64,000 nucleotides of DNA from Eledone cirrhosa (GCA_964016885.1 OZ024743.1:299646001-299710000), one strand, 5' to 3'; counted from the first letter of the stretch, positions 48,891-62,417 are shown. Numbers and translations: made by a program. Notes: generated from the letters alone by a model not told the origin.

Positions 48891-49780
<890 letters not shown>

Positions 49781-51200
49781 ACTTTGAATAACTTTGAAAT
49801 GTTTTGGCCAGTATTGGCCGAGGCCATCTCTAACTTAATAGCACCACCTGGCGAAGTCTTTCAATTCAGGATTTGGGCACCATGGCCCATTCGAGAAGAG
49901 AATTACTGTTTGCGGAGACATATCCGGGTGTGGGTGGTTTGTCCGGGATTACTTGGAGGAATTTGTCCAAAGACTTCTTGAATTTTGTGTGGTCAGTTTC
50001 TGTTTTGACGTGTCCTGGTGTGCTGTTGAAGAGAGCAGGGCCGATTGAGGTGAAATAATTGTGCCGTATTGTTGTTATGAGTTGCGATTTAGATTTTTGA
50101 ATGGGACTGATAGCACGGGGCCCAAGCCTTGGGTGTATCTTGAAGGCGATGCCAACATCATTTGGGCAGTGATGATGGAACATTTTCCACATCATGCAGA
50201 TAATATAACGCTCACGGCGACGTTGGAGTGAGTAAAGTTTCAGGTTTTCTAGTCGACCCCAGTAGTCAAGGTCTGACATGCCATCTATCTTTTTCGTGAT
50301 TGCCCTTTGAGGAGCTTCAAGTTTCATGATACTTTGTTTCGTGTGGGGAGACCACAGTGGACAACAGTATTCAAGGTGTGGTCGGGCAAAAGTAGAGAAG
50401 AGAAGGATAATGGTGTGGGAATCTCTCGACTAGAAGGTTCTGAGGTTCCAGGAACACATTCTGCGTGCCATGTCAACTTTACTGCTTATATGCGTGGCCC
50501 AGCTATGTTGCTGTCCACGGTTACTCCCAAGTTTCTGATTTTGTTAGATGCCACGAGAGTTTCCCCGGAGGGAAGGGAGTACGGGAGTTTCAGAGCATCC
50601 TCTTTTCCAAAGTGGATCAGTTCGAATTTGTCTTCGTTCAGTAACATGTTGTTCTTTTCCACCTATTGGGTAACAGCCAGTAGGTCTGACTGAAGGCTTA
50701 TCCGGTCATCCACGCCAATGATGACCTTTTGGAGCTTGGAATCATCAGCGAAAATTTTAATGTTGCTGTGTTTGATGATGTCAGTGATGTCATTAATATA
50801 GATAATGAAGAGAAGTGGGCCCAACACAGTGCCTTGTGGGACCCCACTACTGACTTTGGCTGGGCTGGATTTGACTCCTTCAACTACAACATGTTGGGTT
50901 CTATTTGACAGGAAGCTCTTGATCCACTGCAGCAGCTTTCCAGTGACACCAATATTGGACAGCTTTCTCAGTAGAATGTTATGATCAACCCTGTCAAAGG
51001 CCTTGCTGAAGTCAAGGTAGATAACATCAGTGCTGGAACCCTCTCCCAAGGCTCTCAAAATGTCAGCAAAGTGATGCAGTAGCTGCGTCAGGCAATCCCT
51101 TCCATTACGGAATCCATGCTGGTTGGAGTGCAGCATATTGTTACTCTCAAGGAAGTGGGTCATTCGCGATCTCACCACTCTCTCAAATACCTTAATGAGA
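49781..51200 (-). mobile_element. 5'-truncated CR1-group LINE (RT to 3' UTR)
   Basis: NQHGFRNGR, YLDFSKAFDRVDH, SGVPQGTVLGPLLF, FADD, LYSLQRRRER; contains stops and frameshifts. Confidence 0.9.
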
Positions 51201-51511
51201 TAAATATATATATATTAAAACAAATAACGAAACGAAATTAAATTTCGTTTCGTTTGTAACTCACTTTTGTATGACTGACGCTTAAACAATTAAGTTAAAA
51301 AAATGTACATCTACATATGCATACTGAAATACTAGTGTGCATATGAATACACACACGTATATATATGTAGATGTAACAAGTCTTTCACTGGTTGCTTTAC
51401 TGTGAGCAACCCAGCTATTCTGTATGTAAACACACAGACAAACCGGTTTTTAGAGTCATACTGGTTTTCGAGGAAACACCTTCCCTCTATTCTCCAGAAA
51501 GCCAGACAAGG

Positions 51512-51556
51512 AATATTGAACTAGTTTCGTTGTTGTTACAACTCATCAGCAATATT
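51512..51556 (-). ncRNA. Minimal type I hammerhead ribozyme
   Basis: AATATTG-CTGATGA-GTTGT-AACA-ACAAC-GAAA-CTAG-TT-CAATATT on the minus strand. Confidence 0.92.
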
Positions 51557-51979
51557 TACATATCTACCGGCCTTTCTGGAGAATTGTAAAAGCACATATC
51601 GTTATATGCTTTTTCTATGAAAATTAATAGTGGGCAGACTAATTTGCATGGAGTGTGAGTACGCACCGGTTCAGCGGAGACGATAAAAACAAATAACGAA
51701 ACGAAATTAAATTTCGTTTCGTTTGTAACTCACTTTTGTATGACTGACGCTTAAACAATTAAGTTAAAAAATGTACATCTACATATGCATACTGAAATAC
51801 TAGTGTGCATATGAATACACACACGTATACATATGTAGATGTAACAAGTCTTTCACTGGTTGCTTTACTGTGAGTAATCCAGCTATTCTGTATGTAAACA
51901 CACAGACAAACCGGTTTTTAGAGTCATACTGGTTTTCGAGGAAACACCTTCCCTCTATTCACCAGAAAGCCAGACAAGG

Positions 51980-52024
51980 AATATTGAACTAGTTTCGTTG
52001 TTGTTACAACTCATCAGCAATATT
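51980..52024 (-). ncRNA. Minimal type I hammerhead ribozyme
   Basis: Identical 45 nt motif. Confidence 0.92.
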
Positions 52025-52447
52025 TACCTATCTACCAGCCTTTCTGGAGAATTGTAAAAGCACATATCGTTATATGCTTTTTCTATGAAAATTAGTAGTG
52101 GGCAGACTAATTTGCATAGAGTGTGAGTACGCACCGGTTCAGCGGAGACGATAAAAACAAATAACGAAACGAAATTAAATTTCGTTTCGTTTGTAACTCA
52201 CTTTTGTATGACTGACGCTTAAACAATTAAGTTAAAAAATGTACATCTACATATGCATACTGAAATACTAGTGTGCATATGAATACACACACGTATACAT
52301 ATGTAGATGTAACAAGTCTTTCACTGGTTGCTTTACTGTGAGCAACCCAGCTATTCTGTATGTAAACACACAGACAAACCGGTTTTTAGAGTCATACTGG
52401 TTTTCTAGGAAACACCTTCCCTCTATTCTCCAGAAAGCCAGACAAGG

Positions 52448-52492
52448 AATATTGAACTAGTTTCGTTGTTGTTACAACTCATCAGCAATATT
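52448..52492 (-). ncRNA. Minimal type I hammerhead ribozyme
   Basis: Identical 45 nt motif. Confidence 0.92.
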
Positions 52493-52776
52493 TACCTATC
52501 TACCAGCATTTCTGGAGAATTGTAAAAGCACATATCGTTATATGCTTTTTCTATGAAAATTAGTAGTGGGCAGACTAATTTGCATAGAGTGTGAGTACGC
52601 ACCGGTTCAGCGGAGACGATAAAAACAAATAACGAAACGAAATTAAATTTCGTTTCGTTTGTAATTCACTTTTGTATGACTGACGCTTAAATAATTAAGT
52701 TAAAAATGTACATCATAGAAAAAGCATATAACGATATGTGCTTTTACGATTCTCCAGAAAGGCCGGTAGATTGGTA

Positions 52777-52821
52777 AATATTGCTGATGAGTTGTAACAA
52801 CAACGAAACTAGTTCAATATT
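52777..52821 (+). ncRNA. Minimal type I hammerhead ribozyme
   Basis: AATATTG CTGATGA GTTGT AACA ACAAC GAAA CTAG TT CAATATT. Confidence 0.92.
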
Positions 52822-53243
52822 CCTTGTCTGGCTTTCTGGAGAATAGAGGAAAGGTGTTTCCTCGAAAACCAGTATGACTCTAAAAACCGGTTTGTCTGTG
52901 TGTTTACATACAGAATAGCTGGATTACTCACAGTAAAGTAACCAGTGAAAGACTTGGTACATCTACATATGTATACGTGTGTGTATTCATATGCATACTA
53001 GTATTTCAGTATGCATATGTAGATGTACATTTTTAACTTAATTGTTTAAGAGTCAGTCATACAAAAGTGAGTTACAAACGAAACGAAATTTAATTTCGTT
53101 TCGTTATTTGTTTTTATCGTCTCCGTTGAACCGGTACGTACTCACACTCTATGCAAATTAGTCTGCCCACTACTAATTTTCATAGAAAAAGCATATAACG
53201 ATATGTGCTTTTACGATTCTCCAGAAAGGCCGGTAGATAGGTA

Positions 53244-53288
53244 AATATTGCTGATGAGTTGTAACAACAACGAAACTAGTTCAATATT
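53244..53288 (+). ncRNA. Minimal type I hammerhead ribozyme
   Basis: Identical 45 nt motif. Confidence 0.92.
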
Positions 53289-53710
53289 CCTTGTCTGGCT
53301 TTCTGAAGAATAAAGGAAAGGTGTTTCCTCGAAAACCAGTATGACTCTAAAAACCGGTTTGTCTGTGTGTTTACATACAGAATAGCTGGATTACTCATAG
53401 TAAAGTAACCAGTGAAAGACTTGGTACATCTACATATGTATACGTGTGTGTATTCATATGCATACTAGTATTTCAGTATGCATATGTAGATGTACATTTT
53501 TAACTTAATTGTTTAAGCGTCAGTCATACAAAAGTGAGTTACAAACGAAACGAAATTTAATTTCGTTTCGTTATTTGTTTTTATCGTCTCCGTTGAACCG
53601 GTACGTACTCACACTCTATGCAAATTAGTCTGCCCACTACTAATTTTCATAGAAAAAGCATATAACGATATGTGCTTTTACGATTCTCCAGAAAGGCCGG
53701 TAGATAGGTA

Positions 53711-53755
53711 AATATTGCTGATGAGTTGTAACAACAACGAAACTAGTTCAATATT
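53711..53755 (+). ncRNA. Minimal type I hammerhead ribozyme
   Basis: Identical 45 nt motif. Confidence 0.92.
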
Positions 53756-54010
53756 CCTTGTCTGGCTTTCTGGAGAATAGAGGAAAGGTGTTTCCTCGAA
53801 AACCAGTATGACTCTAAAAACCGGTTTGTCTGTGTGTTTACATACAGAATAGCTAGATTACTCACAGTAAAGTAACCAGTGAAAGACTTGGTACATCTAC
53901 ATATGTATACGTGTGTGTATTCATATGCATACTAGTATTTCAGTATGCATATGTAGATGTACATTTTTAACTTAATTGTTTATATATATATATATATATT
54001 TATATATATT

Positions 54011-54041
<31 letters not shown>

Positions 54042-54080
54042 ATATATATTTATGTATATATATATTTATATATATATATT

Positions 54081-54114
<34 letters not shown>

Positions 54115-54123
54115 TATATATAT

Positions 54124-56448
54124 TACTCTTTTACTCTTTTACCTGTTTCAGCCATCCGGCTGAGGCCATGCTGGGGCACCGCCCTTGTTGCTACACATTT
54201 TATCTCCAGCCTGTATAGGTTGGCCACTGGTGTAGGAGGGAGTTTGTTGCTGCTGCCCTTAGGTTTCCCTCGTGTCTTGCTGTGGGCTCATCCGGGATCC
54301 TGGATAACAAGGTGTCGAGATGTTTCTTAAAGACATCCACCTCCACGTCATGCAAGTCTCGCAGATGCCTCGGCAGCCTGTTGAAGCGTTGAGGGCCCTT
54401 GAATCCCAGGCTATTGCAATACCTGCTCCTTATTCTAGATGTGGAAGACGGGACCTTTGGCACCACACAGTGACGTCCTGTTCGACGGTTGGTCCAGCTC
54501 CCAATGCCAAAGTTTGGTGCTAGTCCCTCCAGGATTTTCCACATGTCGATCACTGCGTATCTCTCCCGTCTTCGCTCCAAGGAGTAGAGGTTCAGTTCCT
54601 TCAGCCTCTCCCAGTAGCTTGTCTCCCTCATCTTGGCAATCCTCTTGGTGTAGCTTCGCTGGATTGCCTCAAGCTCCGTGGTTAGTTTGACACTATGGGG
54701 TGACCACAGCTGGGAGCAGTAGTCCAGGCGGCTTAGGACAAAAGTCCTCCACAGTGTCAACATGGTGTCTCGATCTCTTGTAAGGAAAGTCCTCAAGATC
54801 CAGCCAGCGAATCGTCTACATGCTGTCGCCACCTTCATGATGTGTGAAGAAAAAGATGCATCATCGCTCATGTCTATGCCCAGGTCTCGTATCGATTTTG
54901 ACACGGGGATATCGGTCCCTCCTGGTCCTGTGTAGCTGTGTTCCGCTATATTTGTGTTTGTGTTTGCAGGTTTGTATTGTAGGGCTTGGAATTTGCCAGC
55001 ATTAAATTGCATGTTGTTTTCTTCCGCCCATCTGTATATAGCAGCCGGGTTTTTGATTGCCTGTGCTACCTTAGTGTCATCAGCATAGCTAGTGAGGGAT
55101 GTTGTTGTATGCACCACAGAGGGCATGTCCGAGAGAGCCACCAAAAACAGTAGTGGTCCCAGGACTGTCCCCTGAGGCACCTCACTTGTTATCGGTGTTT
55201 CCCTCGAGAGGGCCCCATTTGCTGCGGCTGCCTGGCTTCTGTCCCTTAGGAAGCCATGCAGCCACTCACCTACTTTTCCAGTTATGCCGAGTCCGTGTAG
55301 TTTGTGACATATCATTCCGTGGTCGACCTTGTCAAAGGCCTTCGCAAAGTCAAGATATATCACGTCTACATGTGAGCTGTCTAGTAGTTGTCTCAGTACC
55401 CAGTCGTAGTGATGTAGCGGCTGTGTAAGGCAGCTTCTTCCTGAGCGGAAGCCATGTTGCGTGCTAGTCAGGCGGTCATTTTCTTCGAGGAAAGTGATTA
55501 GTTTCTTTCTGATGACTCGCTCCATGACCTTACTGATATGCGACGTCAGGGAGACTGGCCTATACTTCTTGGCCTCCGCTCTACTACCTCCTTTATGGAT
55601 AGGGCATATTGTGCCTTCTTTCAGCTCCCTGGGTAGTACACCGCTAGCCAAGGAGCTTCTGAAGAGCATCTTCAGTGGAGTTGCTAAGGCCCGCTTACAT
55701 ATTTTTAGGAGAACTGCTGGGAATCCATCAGGTCCAGCAGCAGAGTCTGTTCTAATTTCATCAATGGCGTACACCACATCCTCCTCCGTTATGTCTATGT
55801 GGTTGATGGTTGCCATTTCTTGATGTAGTGTTGTGGCATCAAATAACTCCTCTGGCTTCGTTATTTGCATGTGCCTCAGTGGACATGTGAAGACACTTTT
55901 GTACTGTTCCTTCAATATTTCACATATCTCTTGGGGATTTTCGGTTAATGAACCGTACGTGTGGAAGAGTGGTCCAATCTTGCAGTGTACTGAGGCAGTT
56001 TCTTTTGCAAATTTAAAGAAGGCCTTAGGGTTTGTTTTAATGTTTTCTATGGCCCTGTTCTCTTTCCTTGCCCTCTCATTCTCATGTGAAAGCTTGAGTG
56101 CAATCTCGGTGTCAAGTTGTGCACGTTTCAAATAGGATTCCTTCTTGTTTTGGTTTTGTTGACTATTCAACTGGTTTGAGAGTTTAGTTCTACGTCTCAT
56201 AAGGATTTTCCTATCTCTGGGAATAAGATTTTTGTGTCTGTTTGCCTCTTTCTCCGGGACACACTTTTTGCATATGGTGTGTATCGTTGTCATGAAGTGT
56301 TGAAATTGTGTGTTAGTGTCTTGTGTGGCGATGTTTGCACTCCATGTTTGCTTCCGGATTTCACTCTTAATCTTCTTCCAGTCAGCCCCGTAGAAGTTAA
56401 GGCTGGATAGCGTCCCGGAGCTTCTTGGTGGTTTTGTCTCTATTTTGT
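54124..56448 (-). mobile_element. 5'-truncated CR1-group LINE with a long open RT frame and (GAGTAAAA)-type tail
   Basis: ORF 54200-56293: SAAGPDG, YRPVSLTS, QHGFRSGRSC, YLDFAKAFDKVDH, VPQGTVLGPLLF, YADD, LDYCSQLWSP, LYSLERRRER. No endonuclease domain; inserted in (TA)n. Confidence 0.92.
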
Positions 56449-56451
56449 CGC

Positions 56452-56921
<470 letters not shown>

Positions 56922-57430: not shown

Positions 57431-57759
57431 TAACATCACATTAAATATTAAAATCTTTACTCCAATACTACAAATTTTCATTACAGTCTGTCTACCAGTA
57501 GAGATACTGTAAACATTTGAATTAACAAACATGTTTTCTATATGTTTACTGCTAAATCATTACTGGATGTTAGGAGTTAATTTAACTCTTTAGTGTTCAA
57601 AGCAATTATTTCCCCTTCATTTGTTCAATCCGGCCGAAACCAGCCGATTACACCCACACTAAAATTATTAGTGGGAAATAGTATATATATAGGTTTCAAG
57701 GAACATAGAATATTAATCTGCAGTTAAATCATAATATGTGTTTACATAGTTGTGTCAGT

Positions 57760-58720
57760 ATTAGGAAATGGTATTTGTAAGAAAGAAGGCTAAATTATGC
57801 ATTTTAATATAAGTAGACTATTAATTATAGGTTAATTAAAGTAAAAATAGTTAATATATTAATTTCTAAGGTGTATACTACTTAGGTTTATAATATTTAA
57901 AGCGGAATTTTGAAGTTAAACAGTAGTAGAGTATTAATTATAGCATAACTAAATTAAAAATAATTACATATATTAACATGATGGTATCAATTTTAGGAAA
58001 TGAATTTTGTAATAGGGAAAGCCAAATTAAGTATTTCATCGGTAGTAGAATATTAATTATAGGTTAACTAAATTAAAAATGATATATTAATTTCTATAGT
58101 ATATGTTAATTAGGTTTATAATAATTAAAGCAAAATTTTGTATTTTATCTATAGTAGAATATAATAATAGGTTAACTAAATTAAAATTAATCTATATATT
58201 TATTTGTAAAGAGTATATTAATTAGGTATATATTTAAAAGTTTTTCTCAGTTTATGATTACACGATATTCTGCAATCCATCTGTATTAGAATTTTAATTA
58301 TAAGCTAACTAAATTAAAATTATAGGTTAACTAAATTAAAATTAATTTATAAATTCATTTCTAAATTATATATTAATTAGGTTTATAATATTAAAAAGTA
58401 TTTCTCCGTTATTAATTACACGATATTTTGTTGTATTTCATCTGTAAAGAATTTTAATAAAAGGTTAAATAAACTAAAATTAATCTATATATTAATTTCC
58501 AAAGAATATATTAATTATGTTAATAATATTTAAATGTTTTTCACAGTTTATTATTATATGATATTTTTTAATTTCATCTGTAGTAGAATTTTAATTAAAT
58601 TAAAATTATAGGTTAACTACATTAAAATTAATTTATATATTAATTTCTAAAATATATATTATTAATTAGGTTTATAATATTTAAATCTTTTTCTCAGTTT
58701 ATGATTACACGATATAATTA
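57760..58720. repeat. Degenerate AT-rich tandem repeat (~140-160 bp) built from the 3' end of the adjacent GIY-YIG ORF
   Basis: TTTTCTCAGTTTATGATTACACGATAT-like blocks at ~58241, 58401, 58537 and 58689; ATAGGTTAACTAAATTAAAA recurs. Confidence 0.75.
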
Positions 58721-59085
58721 ATTCCTGTCGCTTATTTAATAGGATATCCTTAGATTTCATTATTTCAAATAGTTCTTGGGAACACAATCTACATTCATTT
58801 CTATTATTTTGATAAGGGGTGGCTCTTTTGAGCACACTCCAGGTCATATCATATTCTATATTCTTATTTCTATAACTATTAATTTTTTCTGCTAGAGATA
58901 TTGTATTAGCCAGTGCGGCATTTTTAAAACTATGTTTGTGGGTATTAAACCTTACCTTAAAATTGTTAGAATTAGCTCCTATATATGAGCAAATAGAATC
59001 TTTAGTTTTAACTTTACATTTATAAACTATGTTGTTAACAAGACAATTTCCTTTTAATGGGCAGTTTGCTTTGTTTCTACAGAAT
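58662..59085 (-). pseudogene. GIY-YIG endonuclease end of a Naiad-like Penelope element
   Basis: CRNKANCPLKGNCLVNNIVYKC...YIG...FKVRFNTHKHSF...CRLCSQE...LLNKRQE...CNH. Confidence 0.85.
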
Positions 59086-60830
59086 AAGTCCTTGCACGCT
59101 GCTTTGCGGTAGAAGGTGGTGTTTATATCTCCTTCTTCCGAGATGTTGATACGGAAGTCGAGGAGGGCGAGTGACCCGTCTTCTCCTGGGTGTTCGATGG
59201 TGAAATCGACGTGATGGTCAGTATCGTTGAAGATTTGGTGAATTTCATTCGCCATCTCCCGGGAAGAAGTAAGGACTTATTTGTGCAAGGACTTATTTGT
59301 GCATTACAACTCAGCCCTCCCCAACAACGCTAAGAGAGGCTATGTCCTAAATGAACTGACACGGATCACTAACAGATGCAGCGAGCCGATGGGTGGTCTC
59401 ACCCATACCACGCAATTCCGTAATTTACTCAGGTCTAATGGATATCCCAAGCGACTGATTAACGGAATTAGAGACCCCAGACCCAATAGACAGACACCCA
59501 CTAGAAACTTAAATAAAAGCAGGTGCTTCTTTAAAATCCCCCACCTGAGTGAATATACCACGAACGCCATCCGCAGGGCCATACGGACGGAGGGACTTGA
59601 CATACATTTGGCCCACACAGGACCTTCGCTGCGAAGATGCCTCTCCTACAAACCCGACGAGTCAGATGGGACGTGTTCCCTCAGCAACTGCCCGATACGG
59701 GGGGCAGATTGCCTACGCACCTATGTCGTATATAAGATTCAATGCGATAAATGTAACAAGTTTTACATAGGTAGCACCATCCGACCCCTACATGTTCGTA
59801 TCAAGGAACATATCAACACCAACGCATCTTCCTTCCGTAAACACATCCTTAAATGCGGAAACCCACAGGGTAGACCCTTGGTCACAGTCCTAGCGACTGA
59901 ACGCAGCATCGGATCCTTAAGGATAAAGGAATCACTTGTTATTAAGAACCTCAGACCCCCACTTAACAACCGGGCTGAGAGAAATGAGCTGACATGGCTA
60001 ACTTAACCATAGTGACCATTCACAGCCCTTCCGGCCTGCTATTTTCACACACACGCACGTATATGCATACCCATAAGCATACACACACACATCTATATTT
60101 ATACACGCACACATGTTTTTACAACCTACCACCTTTCACACCCTTTGATTTCCAGCTTCTACAGCCCACTATCTTTCACACACACACGCACTCACACATA
60201 TACACACACATGTATACCCATACGCTTACACACACACACATCTATATTTATACACGCACACATGTTTTACAACCTACCACCTTTCACACCCTTAGATTTC
60301 CAGCTTCTACAGCCCACTATCTTTCACACACACACAAACTCACACATATACACACTTACACATATACACACACAGTTACACACACATATATATTTACACA
60401 CACATATTTTACGGCTTTCACACGCTAGCGCACCCTCTTGATTTAACCCATTTGGTCAGTAGCTTTTGCCACAGCCTATCACGCGCACGCGCATTCTTTC
60501 CCTCATTTAAATTTTAAATAATTTTTATCCCCATAACGGCATTCCTGTTTTAACGACATCACAACTTTCTCCGCTTAGCCTGTTTCCCCCCCTTTTGGAA
60601 CTTTCCCCCGTTGATGGGCGTGAGCCCGAAATATTGGGATTAAATCTCCACTACGGTAACCCTTCTACCTTTGTTTTGTTTTCATCTTTGTCTCTCTCAA
60701 TTTTCACTTTATCCTATTTCTCCTATCTATCATTCACTTCCTACCTCGAGATTTCCCTCTGCATTGTTGTGGCTTTCTAAACTACGTATTTTACACATTT
60801 CACAATGCTTCAAGCAAACTTTAACACCCT
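59086..60830 (+). mobile_element. 5'-inverted Penelope-like element (RT thumb, GIY-YIG, pLTR)
   Basis: ORF 59281-60006 has VVYKIQCDKCNKFYIGSTIRPLHVRIKEH...RKH..C...LRIKES...PPLN. The upstream RT segment (FTIEH..SLALLD...FYRK) is inverted at 59086-59270. A decayed HHR lies at ~60604-60640. Confidence 0.88.
60045..60345. repeat. Two ~148 bp direct copies inside the PLE 3' region
   Basis: CATCTATATTTATACACGCACACATGTTTT..ACAACCTACCACCTTTCACACCC occurs twice. Confidence 0.85.
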
Positions 60831-60832
60831 CT

Positions 60833-60987: not shown

Positions 60988-61134
60988 TTATTTCTGAAGA
61001 CGGCATATATATGTGTTGGGTATGTATATTTAATTTTGATAGTTTGTATAATTTTGTATAATTTTGTACATAGATCTGTTGAATATGCATGCCAATTCTA
61101 ACACATATATATCCTAGAAACGATCGTTAAATAA
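60988..61134 (+). ncRNA. Hammerhead ribozyme with ~115 nt stem II extension
   Basis: TTATTT-CTGAAGA-[..ATATATATGTGTTGG...CTAACACATATATAT..]-GAAAC-GATC-GTT-AAATAA. Confidence 0.65.
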
Positions 61135-61335
61135 TGAACTTTTTTTGTTTAATATAAGGAACTGTTTCATTGTTTTATTCATTATTTTTTTAATATTTTA
61201 TCTTGACTCTGTATTCCGTTTATCTTTCACCGAATGTGATTTTTCATTGCATCTCTTCTTTCCATGATATCCGGATTACATTGAGTTCTTCATACGGATT
61301 GGACACTACCGTAAACTCTTGGTAGATTTATCTAC

Positions 61336-61841: not shown

Positions 61842-61938
61842 TTTGAGTTTATGTTGGTTGTATACCAACACATCAGTATGCAGGCTGGAGCACTCAACGA
61901 AGTGCGCAGGTTGGTTTGGTTACTCCGGAGTAGTGTAA

Positions 61939-62417
<479 letters not shown>

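Follow-up and report, generated by a model that had tools for sequence, protein, structure and literature searches.

Inverted two-armed arrays of a young hammerhead retrozyme in TA tracts of Eledone cirrhosa, likely copied by a PLE enzyme

We describe in Eledone cirrhosa a young hammerhead non-LTR retrozyme family that is inserted as two inverted, 5′-truncated arms in (TA)n and is likely copied by a PLE reverse transcriptase-endonuclease. The family was recognized in a window, by which we mean the whole analysed stretch of 64,000 nucleotides (GCA_964016885.1 OZ024743.1:299646001-299710000), in which positions are counted throughout. The architecture of the insertions, their recurrence across the genome and the covariation of the ribozyme stems are demonstrated. 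The initial annotation had already proposed a young non-LTR retrozyme copied by PLE enzymes, and this proposal is supported by the inverted arms, the one-sided tail, the TA target and the TSDs reported below.

The element had been read as one tandem array of about 5.9 head-to-tail units, a description that has to be abandoned. Tandem Repeats Finder resolves two inverted arrays, not a single run: a minus-strand array at 51217-52714 (period 468, 3.2 copies) and a plus-strand array at 52713-53982 (period 467, 2.7 copies). The two arms of the insertion at 51214-53982 are inverted copies of each other whose 5′ ends point inward and meet within a (TA)n tract at 52713-52714; each outer end likewise runs into (TA)n (Table 1). 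The TA target blurs the exact base of the left boundary, which lies at 51214-51217, and leaves no readable TSD at this locus. The 467-468-nt non-coding unit itself stands, with periods of 467 and 468 and no ORF of at least 120 aa within 51214-53982, where the RT + GIY-YIG ORF of an autonomous PLE is accordingly absent. The GC content of 0.34-0.37 lies below 50%, as is usual for a retrozyme, and the element belongs in this class by its tandemly repeated units, which are several hundred bases long and contain one type I hammerhead apiece. Only two whole monomers per arm could be released at this locus. The insertion is flanked by two LINEs, both 5′-truncated and each ending in a TA tract, which lie side by side with the retrozyme in a TA-rich zone (48892-56921). 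That the element interrupts one LINE was considered and rejected, as the flanking LINEs belong to different families. TA tracts in this genome are insertion hot spots. Transcription through the retrozyme would yield double-stranded RNA over about 1.27 kb.

Table 1. Features of the two-armed insertion in window coordinates; unit positions are counted from the ribozyme cut.
Feature	Position	Strand	Basis or remark
Whole two-armed insertion, inverted, 5′ ends inward	51214..53982	.	repeat finding and arm comparison
Left arm: 3.2 units of 468 nt, minor subfamily haplotype	51214..52714	-	
Left arm ends: 5′ truncation at unit position 208; long 3′ end at unit position ~303	51214..52714	-	
Right arm: 2.7 units of 467 nt, major haplotype	52713..53982	+	
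Right arm ends: 5′ truncation at unit position 366; short 3′ end at position ~234	52713..53982	+	
Arm junction, 2-nt overlap (microhomology)	52713..52714	.	
One-sided tail, ~70 nt between two fixed 3′ ends	51214..51284	-	
13-bp hairpin within tail	51226-51254		
Cut-to-cut monomer, 467 nt, strongly self-paired as line or circle	52815..53281	+	
(TA)n target, left remnant	51200..51216	.	direct reading
(TA)n target, right part	53981..54123	.	
Type I hammerhead	52777..52821	+	predicted cut after 52814
Type I hammerhead	53244..53288	+	predicted cut after 53281
Type I hammerhead	53711..53755	+	predicted cut after 53748
Type I hammerhead	52448..52492	-	predicted cut between 52455 and 52454
Type I hammerhead	51980..52024	-	predicted cut between 51987 and 51986
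Type I hammerhead	51512..51556	-	predicted cut between 51519 and 51518
ATGCAAAT, octamer-like motif	53151..53158 (+); also 53618 (+); 51642, 52110, 52578 (-)		once per unit

The six type I hammerheads are as earlier described in their stems, core, AACUAGUU palindrome and GUU triplet, and the plus-strand cuts predicted after 52814, 53281 and 53748 fall at the positions given before. All six 45-mers are identical; the right array carries three of them, on the plus strand, and the left array the other three, on the minus strand. They show the CUGANGA and GAAA core, an NUH triplet (GUU, GUC or GUA across subfamilies) and stems I-III of a type I hammerhead. Comparison with Rfam bears this out in part: Hammerhead_HH9 (RF02275) matches with an E value of 3.4e-8 but at 38.6 bits falls short of the gathering score of 52, and no Rfam family matches at gathering level, so that the relation to HH9 is that of a clan fold in common and not of membership in RF02275. 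The contrast drawn previously between an invariant ribozyme and a varying remainder is literally correct, with none of 26 variable sites in the 45 nt, but it does not exceed chance (about 2.5 sites expected, P of about 0.07); changes in the core number 0 of 1,161 compared with 2.2% elsewhere, an invariance due in part to our choosing loci by the core pattern.

Selection on the ribozyme as RNA is instead apparent from its stems, which compensatory changes preserve across subfamilies and a sister family. In 14 ribozyme variants 97% of cells are paired, against 35-52% in slid controls, and 6 of 16 pairs have changed on both sides, although the rows are kin and the changes thus count lineages, which amount to few events and not to 24 independent ones; the measure of pairs with change was equalled in 106 of 500 shuffles. 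Stem III consists of one pair and a palindromic tetraloop, and its two-molecule duplex folds at −7.2 kcal/mol. A dimer-type ribozyme is predicted, which fits the amphibian type described in PMC7229834. The zero probability of stem III in single-strand folding was rejected as evidence of dimer dependence because the program forbids 2-nt loops. Self-pairing of the monomer is strong (z of −10.4 as a line and −11.1 as a circle), part of which is plain palindromy given the z of −8.4 for the minus strand, and the predicted monomer fold is retained in the sister family.

Searches of the 3.0-Gb genome for the exact ribozyme core returned 5,310 copies with the stem II of the window and 4,196 with other first letters, about 9,500 in all, and none in reversed controls; a compensated GAUGU/ACAUC stem was found in 100 of 100 of the other-first-letter matches listed. 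A looser ribozyme pattern gave 1,570 further matches, most of which belong to a second retrozyme family and not to a PLE. The unit of this sister family measures 424 nt and is about 65% identical to the 467-nt unit over the aligned part (z of 12), with the same core, both end sites and a branched predicted fold; one copy, at L058:897-1320 (minus), illustrates it, the units ranging over about 414-434 nt with a mismatch at the stem II base. Subfamilies of the 467-nt family in the position-ordered set differ by up to 12%. Long ends running into TATAT occur 2,535 times genome-wide and short ends about 2,100 times, of which 1,052 are on the forward strand, the reverse-strand count being inflated by overlapping matches; reversed controls gave 0 for both. 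The genome thus holds at least 2,500 insertion events of the repeat. Contigs under two other organism labels (runs X4 and X6) match the monomer at low depth, one of them a 496-nt contig from X4 with 11 differences; these contigs may derive from a relative, from contamination or from environmental DNA.

Each unit also carries ATGCAAAT, which resembles an octamer and is a possible promoter element. It is present in 11 of 11 cluster representatives, the sister family included (shuffle chance 1.4%). Newt satellite 2 reportedly has an snRNA-type promoter, a parallel to this motif. ATGCAAAT is mutated in the young long-array haplotype of L160, found at 7 places, and is therefore not essential.

We analyzed 85 stretches, namely the 38 best matches to the window monomer, window included, and 47 from among the first exact-core matches along contig 1; five long or later arrays were left out, three of which entered the analysis of long arrays. 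These stretches hold 86 insertions, of which 59 are two-armed and inverted with 5′ ends inward and 27 are one-armed at a 35-nt threshold, about 6 of the latter carrying a tiny partner stub by eye. Outer ends are nearly fixed: 78 of 145 lie at unit positions 299-305, 62 at 226-236 and 5 elsewhere, so that 140 of 145 occupy two sites about 70 nt apart, and TA adjoins 133 of them. In all 55 two-armed insertions with standard ends, a long end is paired with a short one, while long with long and short with short never occur (binomial P of 3e-17 against free pairing); the other 4 two-armed insertions have a non-standard end. Inner 5′ ends are, on the contrary, scattered along the unit, and 3 of 106 at positions 1-5 is no enrichment at the cut (P of 0.11). 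The 53 junctions comprise 31 overlaps of 1-10 nt, 3 longer overlaps, 3 blunt joints and 16 inserts. At L067, L132, L137, L148 and L049, whose targets are more than a plain TA repeat, TSD-like words can be read; at about 9-13 bp they exceed the 4-bp lower bound of retrozyme TSDs. An adjacent inverted 5′-truncated copy (59/86), a tail at one end only (55/55) and a microsatellite target (133/145) are together what distinguishes PLE-mobilised insertions. The one-sided tail with the inverted copy is the known PLE signature, here on a non-LTR retrozyme.

The two arms of an insertion nearly always descend from a common template lineage. Between-arm difference amounts to 0.65% compared with 0.71% within arms (41 loci), and in the position-ordered set no more than 6% of foreign arms match an arm as closely as its own partner does, which holds at 25 of 25 loci. 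Fixed differences between arms occur at 1 of 24 testable loci, which is the window locus itself: 7 of its variable differences separate left from right, the arms come from two subfamilies, and alleles of both arms are present at other loci. Two RNAs were therefore used at this locus, which a fold-back cannot give; such priming on RNAs of two subfamilies is rare. Arm lengths are uncorrelated (rho of 0.18, n = 54), and this combination of one template lineage with independent lengths is in keeping with a PLE enzyme that primed twice on a single RNA. Arm identity could in part come from arm-to-arm gene conversion.

The rival that a single priming sufficed, the first cDNA folding back and priming itself so that the second arm would be copied from the first at the DNA level and cut at the other site, appears unlikely to us. 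Such self-priming has been proposed for rotifer Penelopes (PMC3846280), it agrees with the near-constant likeness of the arms and with the junction microhomology, and one arm is contained in the other at 39 of 52 loci. Containment nevertheless runs in both directions (25 and 14), and neither arm contains the other at 13 of 52 loci, where 14.5 are expected under independence (range 9-20) and 0 under simple fold-back; the 7 fixed differences of the window arms, matching haplotypes at other loci, are equally hard to reconcile with it. Later gain or loss of units could have made some of the 13 non-contained loci. Indeed, 3 of 5 long arrays contain shared variants that recur periodically, which implies duplication after insertion, and this growth weakens the containment test. 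Granting two primings, the template may have been a circle or an uncut linear multimer transcribed from a long parent array, the ribozyme then merely trimming or being dispensable and no circle being formed. We lean slightly towards circles, and regard the linear template as a serious contender that is nonetheless the less probable of the two. In its favour, insertion did not depend on cleavage in the sole in vitro PLE system (PMC11167929), unequal exchange can restore array length, and the haplotype of the zero-variation array L160 recurs in 69 copies at 7 places, mostly in long arrays, as would follow from long linear parents producing long daughters. The same recurrence defeated a private-variant test for rolling circles. 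Linear templates sit less well with the retention of the ribozyme by compensatory changes, with the lack of 5′-end enrichment at the cut and with the circles published for coral, mussel and axolotl retrozymes (PMC7229834). A cut linear monomer primed at 303, moreover, could not rebuild a whole ribozyme, and selection for cutting would be easier to account for with circles. Rolling-circle copying is plausible by analogy. At least one cut site is read through in 93 of 104 arms and two are passed in 46, figures biased by the way the loci were found; units are directly consecutive in up to 30 copies, two 22-piece arrays show essentially no variation over their two arms, and array size does not correlate with within-locus divergence (rho of −0.09, n = 71).

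Two further readings fare worse. That the unit is a mere pseudo-LTR of an autonomous PLE, the arrays being its truncated copies, would be in line with the type I hammerheads and same end structure of PLE pLTRs (PMC4209133, PMC8557442) and with the relation of frog retrozymes to pLTRs (bioRxiv 10.64898/2026.07.22.740005). We hold it very improbable given the lack of a 120-aa ORF in the insertion, the long runs of directly consecutive units, the subfamilies and sister family that evolved as closed units, and the result of four protein queries on the 85 stretches, which found no PLE ORF leading in sense into the unit. An ordinary satellite, a fold-back DNA transposon spreading as DNA or an assembly artefact, with the ribozyme incidental, is largely refuted and hardly credible. 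Some arrays do grow through unequal exchange and inverted arms do resemble fold-back elements, but fixed 3′ ends, random 5′ ends and unequal termini at thousands of sites scattered over the genome, every one with a junction of its own, contradict this reading, as does covariation at the RNA level; short-read contigs from other runs also contain joints between opposite-strand unit positions. Copying by a PLE enzyme, which we prefer, has points against it as well: no PLE with a related pLTR exists among the three families compared, the tail measures about 70 nt against a published 30-40, and 27 of 86 insertions are one-armed.

The three active PLE families compared were a 1,027-aa type and a Hydra-type (DKT and CxCX5C motifs), both from the window, and a Neptune-type; none of them resembles the monomer (z of −1.2 to 0.3). 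The Neptune-type, an autonomous hammerhead-bearing PLE with a 992-residue frame and a CX4CxxC linker, follows the long/short rule in 11 of 11 informative pairs and has the target and a tail of about 60 nt in common with the retrozyme, while the Hydra-type resembles it in its U-rich end and in a stem III that is palindromic and ends in GUU. For one PLE protein of this genome the best named match is from Octopus vulgaris (72%). Mixed insertions, in which a retrozyme arm is joined to the 3′ end of another PLE, occur at L036 and L173 (Neptune-type) and at L054 and L055 (Hydra-type), and at L110 an arm of the sister family is joined to a Hydra-type end. We rejected them as a means of identifying the partner, since they involve two clades, L036 pairs long with long, and deletions between neighbours at TA hot spots are possible; they may represent template mixing or neighbour deletion.

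Other PLE remnants are present in the window. At 57600-60832 lies a chimera in which a Hydra-type 3′ end (minus) is fused in line with an inverted segment of a different PLE; the plus arm of that second PLE follows and ends at TA. Intact long ORFs of the two families are present elsewhere (the 14,054 and 47,745 first-look candidates). The Hydra-type hammerhead at 60988-61135 (+), seen also as L119, has about 114 nt between CUGAAGA and GAAA, a very long stem II that would escape standard descriptors, and a palindromic stem III; in the few copies available, this PLE ends 71 and 208 nt past the cut. A further two-armed stub in TA (61843-62300) has a minimal hammerhead in each arm (62036 minus, 62203 plus), and a two-armed Neptune-type stub at 24967-25672 has its short end left, its long end right and a hammerhead at 25408. 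A 545-residue open frame at 17243-18880 (+), with 52-58% GC, has no Pfam match.

These observations can be assembled into a scheme. An array would be transcribed, adjacent ribozymes would pair their palindromic stems III and excise monomers, and a host ligase would close circles. A PLE protein, probably a dimer, would bind the RNA near the tail hairpin and place a nick in each strand of (TA)n, with about 9-13 bp between them. From either nick, reverse transcription would be primed on a single shared RNA, starting at unit position ~303 in one case and at ~229-234 in the other. The two cDNAs would stop independently and be joined via a few bases of microhomology into head-to-head arms, whose number of units may afterwards rise or fall through unequal exchange; at the window locus, the two primings would have used RNAs from two subfamilies. 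In its most specific version, which we put forward tentatively and think somewhat less probable than not, a dimeric PLE enzyme sits on one ribozyme-made RNA circle, starts cDNA synthesis from the two strands of a TA cut at points about 70 nt apart, and has each of its subunits travel round that circle. In PLEs and animal retrozymes alike, such double rolling-circle reverse transcription, if true, would account at once for the inverted copy, for the tail at one end and for the tandem arrays.

The mover of animal retrozymes has hitherto been argued from co-occurrence and motif likeness, and the origin of the inverted copy and one-sided tail of PLEs is unsettled. Thousands of young insertions with a strict one-long-one-short rule constitute direct genomic evidence for PLE mobilisation, and the common template with independent arm lengths argues for double priming over fold-back. 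The 467-nt unit offers a minimal RNA with mapped start sites, and the genome contains three candidate intact PLE enzymes. Retrozymes and the PLE footprint are each already known separately; our searches of the open literature found no report of their combination as two-armed tailed retrozymes or of the 467-nt family, and preprint supplements could list related families.

Comparison with published retrozymes places the repeat among the metazoan non-LTR type (PMC7229834), with which it has in common non-coding tandem units, one type I hammerhead each, low GC, a self-paired monomer and thousands of copies, its 467-nt unit being longer than the ~170-400 nt given there. Its one-pair stem III with palindromic tetraloop resembles HHR_Amex1 of axolotl, a type that needs dimers (PMC7229834); among frog retrozyme dimers only 1 of 9 cleaved (bioRxiv 10.64898/2026.07.22.740005). 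Cervera and de la Pena (2020, PMC7229834) reported circular RNAs of coral, mussel and axolotl retrozymes. The accessible text of that article lacks the word “inverted” and names PLEs only as candidates, as do the corresponding parts of PMC4209133, PMC7761336 and PMC8969392, whereas here the insertion ends are mapped and bear the PLE signature. Li et al. (2026, bioRxiv 10.64898/2026.07.22.740005) argued from co-occurrence and pLTR homology that retrozymes derive from PLEs. Our unit length falls inside the 51-972 bp range of their vertebrate retrozymes and PLE machinery is likewise the mobiliser; their preprint, in its accessible part, is without mention of tail, orientation or molluscs, while here the integration footprint is direct and pLTR homology was not found in three families.

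Known PLE insertions provide the closest structural counterpart. They comprise a 5′-truncated copy in inverted orientation and a tail of 30-40 bp that is frequently confined to one end; (TA)n is targeted by Naiad and Hydra elements (Craig et al., PMC8557442) and by the Neptune and Hydra clades of EN+ PLEs (PMC8557442; PMC3846280); rotifer PLEs have the same inverted copy and tail with 8-10-bp TSDs, for which self-priming was proposed (Arkhipova et al., PMC3846280). The retrozyme is like EN+ PLE insertions in its head-to-head 5′-truncated arms, one-end tail, microsatellite target and TSD of about 9-13 bp, and unlike them in lacking an ORF, in its tail of about 70 nt and in its multimeric arms; the tail termed “optional” in the PLE literature is here on exactly one arm in every standard pair. 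Non-autonomous Chlamys such as MRC1 (PMC8557442) are likewise PLE-mobilised repeats. In vitro, the PLE protein Poseidon of Anolis (PAc) cleaves AT-rich DNA on both strands and extends them (Frangieh et al. 2024, PMC11167929); it is a predicted dimer, two internal RNA start sites delimit its tail, and ribozyme cleavage is not required. According to the available text of that study, its sites have no strand preference and the pairing of both sites in one event was outside its tests. As in PAc, two internal start sites downstream of the hammerhead define the tail of the retrozyme, but those of PAc lie in an AC-rich stem-loop inside the ORF (PMC11167929), whereas ours are U-rich and flank the hairpin.
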